DNA of 64,000 bases from Eledone cirrhosa (GCA_964016885.1 OZ024740.1:130510001-130574000), one strand, 5' to 3'. Numbered from the stretch's first letter, positions 1,850 to 60,316 are shown. Program-made: numbers and translations. Notes: generated by a model not told the origin, from the letters alone.

Positions 1850-2426
1850 GGGTCATATTTGTGTAATATTGCCAGAATTAATAACAGAACACACTCACTG
1901 TTTGGTTGGTTTTCGCTTCTCGCTCACTTTTATATCGGTAATCTAACTTACTCGGTCCTCAATGTTGCCATTGACTGACCGACGGTCAAAAATAATACAG
2001 ATACAATATAGACACAAACACATATATATAGTGTATCATAAATATTTTGTTGCACATCTGCAACATCGTCAGTGGTGTTATATTTTCCTCCTGTTGTGTT
2101 GTATGTCTACGCCATTTTTATTCAGTCTGAATAAAAATTGCGTATTCAGACTGAATAAACATGGCGTAGACATACAACACAACAGGACGAAAATATAACA
2201 CCACTGACGATGTTGCAGATGTGTAACGAAAGATTTATGATAAACTATATATATGTGTTTGTGTCTATATTGTATCTGTATTATTTTTGACCGTCGGTCA
2301 GTCAATGGCAACATTGAGGACCGAGTAAGTTAGATTACCGATATAAAAGAGAGCGAGAAGCGAAAACCAACCAAACACTGAGTGTGTTCTGTTATTAATT
2401 CTGGCAATATTACACAAATATGACCC
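1850..2426. mobile_element. Fold-back element (~284-bp arms, 9-nt loop) carrying a hammerhead-like motif
   Basis: 1850-2133 is the reverse complement of 2143-2426 with about 8 mismatches; CTGACGA (2204)-t-gttgca/gatg/tgtaac-GAAA (2228) in the right arm; (TA)n follows. Confidence 0.85.
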
Positions 2427-2601
2427 ATAATAATTTTAATAAATAAATATATATATATATATATATATATATATATATATATATATATATATATATATAT
2501 ATATATATATATAGTTGTTGTTGTCAGGTTGTAGTAAATGCGTCCGTAGTCGGTATGACGTTTGAACACTCGATGCTCACGCGGAGCAGAGTATATCATT
2601 A

Positions 2602-2849
2602 TAGATAACAAAGAATCAGTGATGCATCAACATTTAATTTATTAACATATTACATATGTTTCTCCGACGAACAGCTAAGGGTAAGATCTATTATAGATCA
2701 AACCTGACTCTGGAATCACATGTTCCTCAGATATGTTTATCGTTTTCCAAGCATTTCTTCCAACAGTCTTCCAACTGTTCGTCGGAGAAACTCATATATA
2801 GTATGTTAATTAATTGCGTTTTGATGCATCATTGATTCCTCATCATCTA
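2602..2849. mobile_element. Imperfect fold-back element with a minus-strand hammerhead-like motif (2644-2737)
   Basis: Arms gaatcagtgatgcatcaa...gtttctccgacgaacag / ctgttcgtcggagaaac...ttgatgcatcattgattc; minus strand aacatat-CTGAGGA-(~60 nt)-GAAACATATGTA-atatgtt. Confidence 0.65.
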
Positions 2850-2990
2850 AAATATAATATATATATATGCATATGCTTATACATACACCCCCCCCCACAC
2901 ACACACATATATATATATATAGTGGTAGAACACTGAAAGGTAATATCCGTAGTGGTAGAGCACTCAGTCCAGCTAGAACGAGTTAGGTAG

Positions 2991-3129
2991 AAGTGGTTAC
3001 ACAACAGTTAGTTTACCATGCCGAGAACAATTTTTCACCTCAGTGGATCCTCATCCATTACGAGCTGAGAACCCGCTAAGGTGAAACAATTGTTCTCAGT
3101 ATGTTGAACTAACTGCTGTGTAACCACTT
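2991..3129. mobile_element. Mini fold-back element with a degenerate hammerhead motif, abutting (TA)n
   Basis: aagtggttacac.../...gtgtaaccactt arms; cgag-CTGAGAA-ccc-gctaa-ggt-GAAA-CAATTG-TT-ctcag at 3061-3099. Confidence 0.65.
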
Positions 3130-56259: not shown

Positions 56260-58990
56260 TAGGTGAGCTATGAGGCCCTCTTACCAGCACTTTCCCTTCC
56301 ACCCACACACGCCAGCCAGCCACCCCTGATGCCCTCGTTGCCCCTGTCCCCGACCCCACGCCTCATCCAGCATCCCTCCAAGCCGACACCTGCAGCACTT
56401 GCAGAACCACTAACAAACGGAAGAGTGGCCGGAACTGTTTGGGGTGCGGCTGTTTCCACCACCTCACTTGCGTTAGCTTGACTCGTCGAGCTTCCAATGC
56501 CCTCTCAGCGTGGAGGTGCAGGAGCTGCCTCCTCCCCACGTCTTCCCATCCACGGCCGTCTGGCACACAAGCAGCTGGGACAGCGAGCTGGCCGGGCGCC
56601 CAGGCCTCGCTGGTCAACATCGCTCAGCTCAGGCGATTCCGGAAGATCCCACTCAGCATACCGAGAGGGCACGGGTGTCGATAGCCGATGCCATCGCTTA
56701 TTCGATTAAGAACGCCCTGGACTCCAATCGAGCTAGTGACAGGGAGCTGCTGGTCTACTTCGCCCCATTCGCCCTCGGCCTCCCCAGCTCTGGCGCAGAG
56801 CGGGGCGGCCGGTCAACAGATGCCTTCGTCAAGGCCAATGTCTCGTTCTTTGGGCGAGCGCACATTCCAAGCGCGCCCAGGTACGCCACATACCCCACCC
56901 TCAGGTACTCCTATCCTCCAGCCCCAAGGCTAGCGCCAAGCGTTTGCGTGACCAGGTAAACGCCAAACTTATCATGGGTGATGTCTCGGCCGCAGTCAGA
57001 GTTATTTCTGTGGCCAATGTCTTCCGGAGGTTGACTGCCAAGGTAATCTGCACGACCGTAACACACGAAATGGGGGAGGAGTTTAGTCCGGTGCAACTGC
57101 GTGTCGGCGTGTCCGGTGGCTGTAAGGGGACTGCTCATGCAAGCAGGCAGTTCTTCAACAGCTGCCCATCGGAACCGGCATTGAGGGACTCCAGGCATCA
57201 CATTGTCAATGCTTGACATGAGGAATACCTTTTACACTTTACGCCGGGATAATCTGCTCGAGGCCTGCCTCAGCCGAGCCCCCTCTGCCTACACGCTGGT
57301 CTACCTGTCGTATTGAGCCCCGAGCATGTTCCTTGCTGCTGATACGGTCATACCCTCGGCTACTGGGTTCCAACAGGGTGACCCTTTGGGATCCCTCCTG
57401 TTCGCCCTTGGTATTGAACACATCCCCCGGAGTATCCCGGCCGCTCTCAACTTTTGGTATCTGGATGATGCTACGTTGGGCGGGCCCGAACGGACGGTCT
57501 GCCATGACCTTCAATCGGCGGTTACCTCCCTCGCGGCAATCGGCCTCCGCGTCAACTTGGCCAAGTCGGAGGTGGTGAATGTCAGCCTCGATGCTGCGAG
57601 CTTTGTGGCCTCCGTCATGGAGGTGCGGTCCATTCTCCACCAGGTTCAGATGACCCCCAAAGAGAATGTCCTCATCCTCGAGTCACCGACTTACCCGACG
57701 GCCATGCGCTCCACCATCAGGTCCAGGCTTCAACAGCTCCAGACTCTCACGAGCCAACTTGGCTCGATAGACGGCCACCCAGCCCGCTTTCTGTTGAGGA
57801 ACTGCTTCGCCATGCCGAAGCACCTCTATACACTCCGCAGCACTCCATGCTACACCCAGACATCTCTCCTCGCTGACCTCGATACTTGTATCCGAGCAGC
57901 AGCCGAGGAGATATGCAACGTCAAGTTTGACGATATAGGGTGGCAACAGGCCACTTTACCTCTCAGGTATGGCGGCCTTGGCCTCCGGTCCCCGATCTCA
58001 CTAGCTTTGCCGGCGTATCTTTCGTTGGTAACCTCGTGCCGCGTCCTCGTCAGCGGGATTCTTCGAAACACAACAGAACCCTCTCTGTTCAGAGAACGTG
58101 AGGCCTCGTGTGTGACGTGGGACCTGCTGGGACTTAGCCCAGTAGACGTCCTTCCTCCTTCTCCCCCTGTCGACGTCAATTCCCCCCCCAACACACTTGG
58201 CATGCGATCCAGTGCAGCCTGGCCTCAGACAGGTTCATGCGCCAGCTCGTCCAGCAACGCCTTGCATGTTTTCGTGCGGTCTCCAAATCCCACAGTGGTG
58301 CCTGGTTCCATGATCTGCCCTCCTTCTCCACTGGCACGCAGCTAGACAACTATAGCCTGCGCATCGGCGTTTCCTTGAGGCTCTGCCTCCGGATCTGCCA
58401 GCCACACAATGTCGCTGCGGTTCCACCGTGGACTCTTTCGGCCTCAACCCGCTTTCCTGTCGCCACAGTGAAGGCCGCATTCCATGCCATGCTGCCCTCA
58501 ATGAGGTCATTAAGCATGGCTTGGACGCAGCAGGCTTCCCTTGCCAGCTCGAGCCAATGGGGCTGGATCAAGGGGACGGCAAAAGGCCAGATGGCATAAC
58601 CGTCTTCTCGTTCCACGGTGGTAAACCCCTCGTTTTGGATGTCACTTGCACCGACACTTTCTGCAGCCGCAACCTGGTACTGTCTACGACTGACCCAGGT
58701 TATGCTGCACGTCGAGCTGAGGGGGCCAAACTCCTCAATTACCGGTCGCTCTCCGACAGGTTTGCGGTCGTACCTATGAGAGTGGAGACATATGTTGTCT
58801 TCGACCCCAGAGCTACCTCCTTACTCATCACCATAGGCGCTGAGATGGCCAGCCTCAGGTGTGAGCCCCGCGAGTTGGAGTGGCTCTTCCAGCCAGTCTC
58901 CCTCGCCGTGCTCTGGGGAAACGCCTTCTCCATTCTCTCCGCTGGGGATGTGGCTGAGCCCCATCGCCTTCCGCTGTAGTTGCTGTAGAA
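56260..58990 (+). mobile_element. CRE-clade LINE (RT + restriction-like endonuclease), decayed
   Basis: VFRRLTAK, VQLRVGVSGGC, QQGDPLGSLLF, WYLDDATLGG, QATLPLRYGGLG, RPDGIT..LVLDVTCTDT. Confidence 0.85.
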
Positions 58991-59732
58991 GAAACAGGAA
59001 GACAACAACTGGAAAGTTTGATTTTCTAGAATTTGATGTTTGCTTAGTATTTCGATATTACGTTTATCTACATAAGTACTATATTATCGTCTGCTAATTG
59101 TATGGCTGCAAACAACTGTAATAATTAACTCTGCCCGATTGTTCAGCTGCTTAATATAACTACCTTGCTCTTGCACTTTAAAATAGTTTTCCATTTCTAA
59201 AACTAATTTATTGTTTTCATCTTTTTTACCTTTTCCAACTTTTTTTCTTTATTTTATTTTTGCTGTCTCTGGTGTATTCATGAGCATCTAATACGCATTA
59301 TTATAAGTTTTGTTTTTAATTATATTAATGTCGGTGTTAAATATCCTGCGGTAAACATTTCCATGATATTTAAACACCATGGTTCATTAAAACAGATGTG
59401 AGGAATTAACCAACGTACTGTGCACAATACATTATCCATGTAATTTATACCAGTTCATCGAAATAAAAGTTGGGTTATGTTAAATACTTATTGGATTAAA
59501 AGATTAATTTCCGGCAGAATAAAACAGATGTACATGAAATTATATATCAACGTATTTTCCTAAATGTTGTTTTCTTCGCATTACTTTTTCATTTAACATT
59601 TTCTAATTTGAACATGTAACGTGTATATCTAGAAAATGTGATCAAGATAATTGTTATATGGTCTATCAAGGTTCCTTCTCTGAATGTATATAATAAAACG
59701 TATATATATATATATATATATATATATATATT

Positions 59733-59918
59733 AATTGTTTCTACTTTAGGCACAATGCCAGCAATTACCCAGTGCATTACTGGTACTTTATTTTATCGAC
59801 CCCGTAAGGATGAAAGGCAAAGTCAACCTCGGCGGGATTTTAACTCAGATCGTAAAGGGACATAACTATGCTGGAAAGCATGGCGTCCGACCCTCTACCG
59901 ATACTGCCAATCCACCGC
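59733..59918 (-). mobile_element. tRNA-derived SINE with Nin-like domain
   Basis: Near-identical to 47171-47356. Confidence 0.88.
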
Positions 59919-59938
59919 CTTATATATATATAAATATA

Positions 59939-60316
59939 TTAATAAAAGGAATTCCAACTTTGTCTGATTTACTGGTTTTATTTACAATCCTTTAAAATTA
60001 TAATGATATTATAATGAAATTTTATGGTAGCATATTAAGTGTTAAATGTTAATTGAACAAGTACTTTCATGCTTCTGCAATCTCCAGGTTCATATTCAGT
60101 GGTGACATACAAGTTTGCAATTTTCGACTGTAATGAGATGGGTAAACTGTCACCTCTGAACATGAACCTGAAGATTGCGAAAGCATGAAAGTACTTGTTC
60201 AATTAACATGTAATACTTAATATACTACCATACTATTTCATTACCATATCATTATAATTTTAAAGGATTGTAAATAAAACGAGTAAATCAGACAAAGTTG
60301 GAATTCCTTTTATTAA
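59939..60316. mobile_element. Fold-back element (~165-bp arms) with a hammerhead motif in each arm; terminal fragment also at 50007-50060
   Basis: ttaataaaaggaattccaactttgtctgattt / aaatcagacaaagttggaattccttttattaa. Confidence 0.88.
60163..60201 (+). ncRNA. Minimal hammerhead motif (mirror copy at 60054-60092, minus strand, core CTGGAGA)
   Basis: tgaac-CTGAAGA-t-tgc-gaaa-gca-t-GAAA-GTAC-TT-gttca. Confidence 0.7.

Follow-up and report, generated by a model that had tools for sequence, protein, structure and literature searches.

We analysed 64,000 nucleotides (nt) of the 3.0-Gb genome of Eledone cirrhosa (GCA_964016885.1 OZ024740.1:130510001-130574000; this whole stretch is the window), a repeat-dense region with many (TA)n tracts and several remnants of LINEs (long interspersed nuclear elements), and examined ten palindromes in it that carry hammerhead ribozyme motifs in whole or in part. 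Each of these hairpins consists of two 5'-truncated 3' ends of Penelope-like elements (PLEs), one family being retrozyme-like, lying head to head in a TA repeat. The palindromes are a real feature, and what is known of PLEs accounts for most of it: published work already describes inverted copies with 5' truncation, junctions that are palindromic, tails confined to one end, hammerheads in pseudo-long terminal repeats (pLTRs) and TA targeting by the Hydra clade. What is added here is a counted one-tail rule.

Inverted structures were located by self-BLAST of the window after masking for microsatellites. All ten structures that an earlier note on this DNA had placed in or near (TA)n were recovered, spanning 1850-2426 (96%), 2598-2853, 2992-3128, 3498-3598, 9807-10344, 20115-20437, 21064-21260, 21573-21989, 50210-50513 and 59935-60320, and (TA)n adjoins or is near every one of them. 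The arms are mostly unrelated in sequence, as that note had said; among 11 reference ends compared, only those of the families at 2602 (B) and 50207 (J) are alike (76%). The positions it gave point to structures that are present but leave out the one-sided tail of each element, which measures 42-169 nt. At 9675 there is indeed an inverted structure, but the palindrome proper lies at 9807-10344, and 9675 is, by eye, a tail piece past an expanded microsatellite. With tails included, the palindromes are as follows.

Family A, 1776-2426: left arm 1776-2129 (minus strand) with a tail of about 60 nt at 1776-1835; right arm 2147-2426 (plus strand), tailless.
Family B, 2517-2861: left arm 2517-2764 (minus), with a tail of about 81 nt; right arm 2775-2861 (plus).
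Family C, 2922-3132: left arm 2922-3053 (minus), with a tail of about 64 nt; right arm 3055-3132 (plus).
Family D, 3426-3612: left arm 3426-3537 (minus), with a tail of about 70 nt; right arm 3553-3612 (plus).
Family E, 9640-10381: palindrome 9807-10344, from a head-to-tail tandem (retrozyme-like) unit of about 540 nt, with a longer left-side extension past the microsatellite (read by eye).
Family G, 19947-20440: left arm 19947-20271 (minus), with a tail of about 166 nt; right arm 20270-20440 (plus).
Family H, 20981-21274: left arm 20981-21169 (minus), with a tail of about 79 nt; right arm 21171-21274 (plus), with an internal deletion.
Family I, 21484-21997: left arm 21484-21889 (minus), with a tail of about 85 nt; right arm 21906-21997 (plus), which stops within hammerhead helix II.
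Family J, 50131-50516: left arm 50131-50353 (minus), with a tail of about 79 nt; right arm 50352-50516 (plus).
Family K, 59935-60360: left arm 59935-60146 (minus), tailless; right arm 60146-60360 (plus), with a tail of about 42 nt.

One arm per family was searched against the genome, and the best 30 of 456-2619 candidates were taken, a query-biased set; the query for C, like the first ones for H and K, spanned the palindrome centre and so selected palindromes. In seven of the ten families (A, C, G, H, I, J and K), the arms are continuous in other copies with coding sequence for reverse transcriptase (RT) and/or a GIY-YIG endonuclease, with a Pfam match for two of the ten fragments only (one below the cut-off) and the other parent calls made from motifs and tblastn among these elements. 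Families A (1850) and K (59939) are the 3' ends of Neptune-like PLEs. Their parents have a CX2-5CxxC linker and, within a GIY-YIG at the C-terminus, a CCHH pattern, and the K arm runs into a GIY-YIG of A's type (Pfam 4e-07). The arms of G (20113), I (21571), C (2991) and H (21064) run into Hydra-type endonuclease sequence, and J (50207) is the long 3' untranslated region of a Hydra-type PLE, the last ~38 residues of whose endonuclease lie about 1.9 kb upstream. A PLE open reading frame (ORF) upstream of one J copy (L215) was rejected as a parent, since it belongs to another element; the J link is through the endonuclease C-terminus at its own 5' edge only. B (2602) is a sister of J, at 76-79% over its end. 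Non-coding 3' regions of about 1.5-2 kb occur in I, J and H, and the upstream part of D is non-coding for at least 430 nt. The E unit (9675) repeats head to tail at about 540-560 nt in two genomic copies (L429 and L430); no PLE ORF contiguous with its arms was found. It is very probable that the arms are truncated PLE or retrozyme ends, and as elements these are ordinary members of known PLE clades. The suggestion that the hairpins are extremely truncated PLE or retrozyme insertions, and not miniature inverted-repeat transposable elements (MITEs), is upheld.

In each family the outer end lies at either of two sites 42-169 nt apart, and from both the sequence runs into (TA)n. Among 162 incidental copies, a count that left out copies ending well inside the short site, the outer end lay at the short site in 89, at the tailed site in 68 and between the two in 5. 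Inner ends of incidental copies ranged from 17 to at least 900 nt. Few of them (3 of 110) fell at the hammerhead cleavage site, which fits an uncleaved RNA template; a hammerhead-cleaved RNA as template was rejected because no inner-end peak occurs there. In families D (33 of 38) and C (15 of 23), most inner ends of incidental copies lie within the hammerhead core or immediately 5' of it, which suggests RT stalling at the structured ribozyme, with divergence of the upstream sequence as the alternative. Solo ends also occur within the window:

985-1038 (plus strand), solo truncated end of family D.
51403-51471 (plus), solo truncated end of family D.
22029-22119 (minus), solo truncated end of family G.
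50004-50059 (minus), solo truncated end of family K.
20444-20541 (plus), family H end that is almost tail only.

When two ends abut in inverted orientation, the choice of outer end is strikingly constrained. After removal of duplicate loci, exactly one arm was tailed in 124 of 130 such pairs, and tail-neutral queries gave the same picture (90 of 94; p=1.6e-22 against 0.5). Unpaired copies were tailed in 43 of 103 cases, so independent choice would predict one tail in about half of the pairs. Nine window palindromes, mapped to family references, follow the rule, as does E by eye. We also searched eight 100-kb blocks at round coordinates on seven contigs (the 800-kb sample) de novo and obtained 124 palindromes, 49 of which have TA within 120 nt on both sides; 37 of these 49 touch TA on one side and stand 35-120 nt off it on the other.

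These end products point to a mechanism in which a single RNA is the template for priming from both ends of a (TA)n cut, with each end using a different start site. In the proposed sequence of events, a GIY-YIG/RT dimer would cut (TA)n on both strands; of the free 3' ends, one would prime at the inner start site and yield the tailless arm, while the other would prime at the outer start site and yield the tailed arm. Both cDNAs would stop early, often near the structured hammerhead, and would then be joined via short self-complementary sequence or by end-joining. The hammerhead, located 20-120 nt inside the start site, would for that reason be included in the insertion, and its outward reading would follow from the orientation of both RNA-sense 3' ends towards the target DNA. 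We find such twin priming somewhat probable, and the whole account (truncated ends plus twin priming at two fixed sites on one RNA) is the best explanation and, on balance, a probable one. The coupling of the start sites to the two DNA ends is what we infer from the end products. The palindromes were likely built anew at each insertion from one template, because junctions differ, nearly every pair has one tail, and the arms share private variants.

Biochemical work on a PLE protein is consistent with several of these steps. According to the cited passages of PMC11167929, which concern PAc (Poseidon, Anolis), the protein cuts and extends both DNA strands in vitro, on AT-rich targets; it starts reverse transcription at two internal sites that delimit the tail, and it is predicted to form a dimer. 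Hammerhead cleavage is dispensable in vitro, as fits the uncleaved template proposed here. Inverted products and the coupling of start site to DNA end are not addressed in those passages.

Junctions between the arms are diverse, with 110 distinct patterns among the 130 pairs: 58 overlap by at least 2 nt, 26 are flush and 46 contain inserted bases. They concentrate at hot spots of short self-complementary sequence in C, H and K, and some recur (26 patterns in 34 H pairs, 9 in 13 K pairs). Variants common to both arms number 85 in 112 pairs, 37 of them private to one insertion, against about 10 with shuffled partners. The tailed arm is shorter inward by at least 20 nt in 22 of the 124 one-tail pairs; each arm therefore has sequence that the other lacks, and neither is a copy of the other. 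These pairs remove simple fold-back of one cDNA as a general route; the earlier note had put forward formation by fold-back. The same junctions bear on a second explanation, in which the ends are likewise truncated PLE ends made at insertion but self-priming or fold-back, of antisense RNA (Arkhipova 2013) or of a hairpin intermediate, produces the mirror arm, and the endonuclease then trims asymmetrically to leave one tail. The self-complementary hot spots, the 58 overlapping junctions and the private variants common to both arms are all in keeping with it, and a cited passage of PMC8557442 ascribes the tail to endonuclease resolution. However, the other 72 junctions are flush or carry inserted bases, fold-back of first-strand cDNA by itself is ruled out wherever the tailed arm is the shorter one inward (22 pairs), and the outer ends match the two RT start sites in one tested system (PMC11167929, cited passages). 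We consider this route unlikely, though self-priming on an antisense template with asymmetric trimming is the main rival.

A third explanation applies to the smallest palindromes (C, D, H and K), some of which might have become non-autonomous elements that PLE enzymes reinsert, after transcription, as entire hairpins. In C, H and K many palindromes differ little in size and have almost identical centres, certain H and K junctions occur more than once, and the search for a parent ORF of D gave none at the loci examined. Identity between same-side arms of different insertions is also slightly above within-pair identity in K, C and D. In H, on the other hand, arms within an insertion resemble each other no less than same-side arms of different insertions do (0.983 versus 0.979), and the centres of the palindromes differ at base level. 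The impression of similar size came from queries that included the centre: a junction-neutral H query returned many solo or long linear copies and pairs with varied junctions. H and K as fixed-size palindromes were accordingly rejected as partly an artefact of centre-spanning queries (only H was re-queried). Reinsertion of whole hairpins thus seems quite improbable. Nor do the palindromes form a separate class that moves as such, as had been supposed; each arm is the end of a longer linear element, copies that are solo or long occur commonly, and the junctions are variable.

Several observations nevertheless count against twin priming from truncated PLE ends. In the cited passages of PMC11167929 the start site is the same on both DNA strands, which alone predicts no one-tail rule, and PMC3846280, as cited, proposes that head-to-head palindromes form via self-priming on an antisense template. 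Six pairs break the rule, three with both arms tailed and three with none; by eye, one of the six is a mis-call, another is interrupted by an insertion that came later, and a third is compound. Junctions were called from BLAST end points. Variants confined to one arm number 405, and the shared ones could have arisen through gene conversion at a later time or could derive from two RNAs that came from one source locus. Finally, there was no ORF for B among the retrieved copies and no parent ORF for D (3498) at the loci examined.

Hammerheads were sought with a type I descriptor comprising helix I, CUGANGA, helix II, GAAA, helix III and NUH. Strict motifs numbered 59 in the 800-kb sample versus 0 in the reversed sequence; 29 permuted-core controls gave a mean of 0.28 motifs and a maximum of 1, so that hammerheads stand about 200-fold over controls. 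The window holds 5, versus 0 in its control. Density varied from 0 to 21 per 100 kb between blocks, and two blocks (G000:C4:250.0-250.1 Mb and G000:C14:20.0-20.1 Mb) are pure satellite of 19-nt and 84-nt units and yield nothing. A (TA)5 lay within 300 nt downstream of 54 of the 59 motifs and upstream of 36, as compared with 29% of random positions. The outward reading that had been reported also appears in the sample: 16 of the 49 TA-flanked palindromes have an outward motif and none an inward one, whereas the remaining 75 palindromes have outward motifs in 6 and inward in 1. Strict motifs on opposite strands within 1 kb of each other are divergent in 11 of 14 pairs, and the three convergent pairs join unrelated motifs. 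About two-thirds of the TA-flanked palindromes are motif-negative under the descriptor, which argues against universality; the hammerhead is common in such palindromes, not universal.

This motif count and the ends of the arms also address the possibility of MITEs or fold-back DNA transposons whose terminal inverted repeats (TIRs) target TA, the hammerheads in the hairpins being only incidental. The palindromes do look the part, being short, non-coding, TA-flanked and of high copy number. Yet their ends are asymmetric (one tail in 124 of 130 pairs), solo arms are abundant, inner ends and junctions vary, the genes that the arms lead into encode RT/GIY-YIG and not transposases, and the hammerhead count far exceeds that of the controls. 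Contiguity with PLE coding sequence contradicts a DNA-transposon origin, which is very improbable indeed, though no library of transposon termini was searched.

The hammerheads of the window palindromes are whole, degenerate or half, as first described, and all those found by the descriptor point outward. Strict motifs lie in K at 60168-60196 (plus, right arm) and in I at 21671-21622 (minus, left arm), and motifs with one core mismatch lie on the left arms of K at 60087 (minus) and H at 21140-21095 (minus); other sites are degenerate or half. Strict motifs occurred in 27 of 30 K, 26 of 30 I and 29 of 30 H copies. In D, whose window copy has half hammerheads, the whole motif was found in 8 of 30 genomic copies. 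The G hammerhead has CCGAUGA in place of CUGAUGA (U4C) and a long helix II, and 28 of 30 copies pass with one core mismatch. Passes were few in B, J and C (1 each), where helix II is too short (2 bp in the minimal hammerhead of C, degenerate in its window copy), and in E (3 of 30), where the core is decayed. Family A has a core and helix II at 2204-2231 (plus), but canonical helix I is absent and 0 of 30 copies pass. In unconstrained folding, certain natural copies (from H, I, J, E and the local Hydra-type element described below) took up a fold like that of a hammerhead, and others folded differently. An Rfam scan of the window, uninformative for minimal motifs, listed no hammerhead family among 150 of its 181 matches; those listed were all under the gathering score and nearly all microRNA models on microsatellites. 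A diverged relative of family I lies at 12772-12971, with a hammerhead-like motif at 12865-12828 (minus).

The window also contains a PLE with coding sequence.

14152-19604 (minus strand): partial tandem PLE, RT followed by a C-terminal GIY-YIG.

This element has RWR, DKT, CxCX5C and CxH (CRH) motifs, with CxxC in one copy, and a strict hammerhead at 14458-14413. Judged by these motifs, it is of the Hydra type, a clade characterized by C-terminal GIY-YIG, a CxCX5C linker, CxxC/CxH, RWK-like and DKT motifs, canonical hammerheads and (TA)n insertion (PMC8557442). It had earlier been taken for a Naiad; it is not one, because its RT precedes the endonuclease and a strict hammerhead is present, whereas Naiad has an N-terminal endonuclease and no canonical hammerhead (PMC8557442, cited passages). 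The G and I parents align with it at 34-36%, their Cys/His motifs being invariant or nearly so. It had also been named as a candidate mobiliser. Comparison with the arms gave no real match, just two weak short ones (E 0.002 and 0.007), and most families trace to parents of their own; we therefore rejected it as mobiliser or parent of the ten. A homolog search of longer proteins with one Hydra-type fragment scored 0 of 1499 candidates, which is weak evidence.

The likeness to the Hydra clade (C-terminal GIY-YIG, CxCX5C, CxxC/CxH, hammerheads and (TA)n) extends to the G and I parents and the local element, and partially to C, H and J; the assignment is by motifs. The A and K parents share their linker and CCHH pattern with the Neptune and Nematis clades (PMC8557442, cited passages), but the K parent is seen by its endonuclease only and not by RT, and family A lacks canonical helix I. 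"Neptune-like" is meant here in a sense that does not tell these two clades apart. The palindromes resemble published insertions of endonuclease-positive PLEs, in which a truncated copy is inverted head to head, the junction is palindromic, the tail is often confined to one end, the pLTR has a hammerhead and microsatellites are the targets (PMC8557442 and PMC3846280, cited passages). They differ in that both halves are often 50-300 nt and MITE-looking, in tails of 42-169 nt versus the 30-40 known, and in that one tail is near-obligatory where the cited passages call it "optional". Neither the one-tail rule nor PLE twin priming appeared in any title or abstract listed by literature searches of a collection lacking most subscription papers.

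Family E and a side array at 10443-12380 invite comparison with non-LTR retrozymes, which are likewise non-coding head-to-tail units with type I hammerheads (LTR, long terminal repeat; PMC7229834 and bioRxiv 10.64898/2026.07.22.740005, cited passages) and which the latter source treats, in the part cited, as PLE derivatives. The array comprises 3.0 head-to-tail copies of a 427-nt unit with hammerheads at 11296, 11709 and 12136 and an inverted copy at 10674 (minus), and its family is abundant in the 800-kb sample (43 BLAST pieces). Both E and the array are likely to be PLE-mobilised. Their units measure 427-540 nt and also occur in inverted pairs, which the cited passages do not describe.

How tandem and inverted PLE structures form is treated as an open question in the cited part of PMC8557442. 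Combined with the variants common to both arms and with the inequality of the arms, the one-tail rule offers a specific test for the existing in vitro system. Because the stumps look like MITEs, they would be misannotated as DNA transposons. Extrapolated roughly to the 3.0-Gb genome, the 59 strict motifs in 800 kb correspond to about 2 x 10^5 hammerheads. A broader proposition is that every two-ended PLE insertion reflects obligate asymmetric twin priming, in which one RT dimer on one uncleaved RNA primes the two ends of a double-strand cut at two fixed sites and leaves a head-to-head palindrome with exactly one tail, and that such hammerhead-bearing ends, drawn from at least ten families in two clades, number on the order of 10^5 in this genome; we see it as evenly poised between true and false. 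If obligate twin priming is true, the genome would be a ready record from which to read how insertion works, and its potential to give rise to hairpin RNA would be large though latent.

Other repeats were noted in the window and the sample. A direct repeat pair at 26771-27018 and 27412-27654 (92%), with a strict hammerhead at 27334 (plus) that has a 6-bp helix I and a long helix III, is likely another retrozyme or pLTR pair. A very common palindrome family of about 110 nt with a one-sided tail of about 81 nt (for example G000:C2:150016374-150016483) makes up 13 of the short TA-flanked sample palindromes listed; GAAAC is present, and the family is descriptor-negative. The element at 13060-13937 provides a true TIR contrast, with TIRs of about 100 nt (82%) and broken transposase-like frames next to (TA)27, and it resembles a mariner remnant. 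A dispersed repeat of about 190 nt, which may be related to short interspersed nuclear elements in kind (SINE-like), has five copies (13937-14145, 47173-47356, 47724-47837, 59732-59919 and 63556-63745). Broken LINE-type elements lie at 29003-32645, 43581-47145, 34425-37396, 38191-43105 and 56274-58979, the first two being 90% identical over 3.7 kb, and an uninterrupted LINE-type ORF of 1141 aa at another genomic locus (L216 923-4345) is related to the element at 34425-37396.

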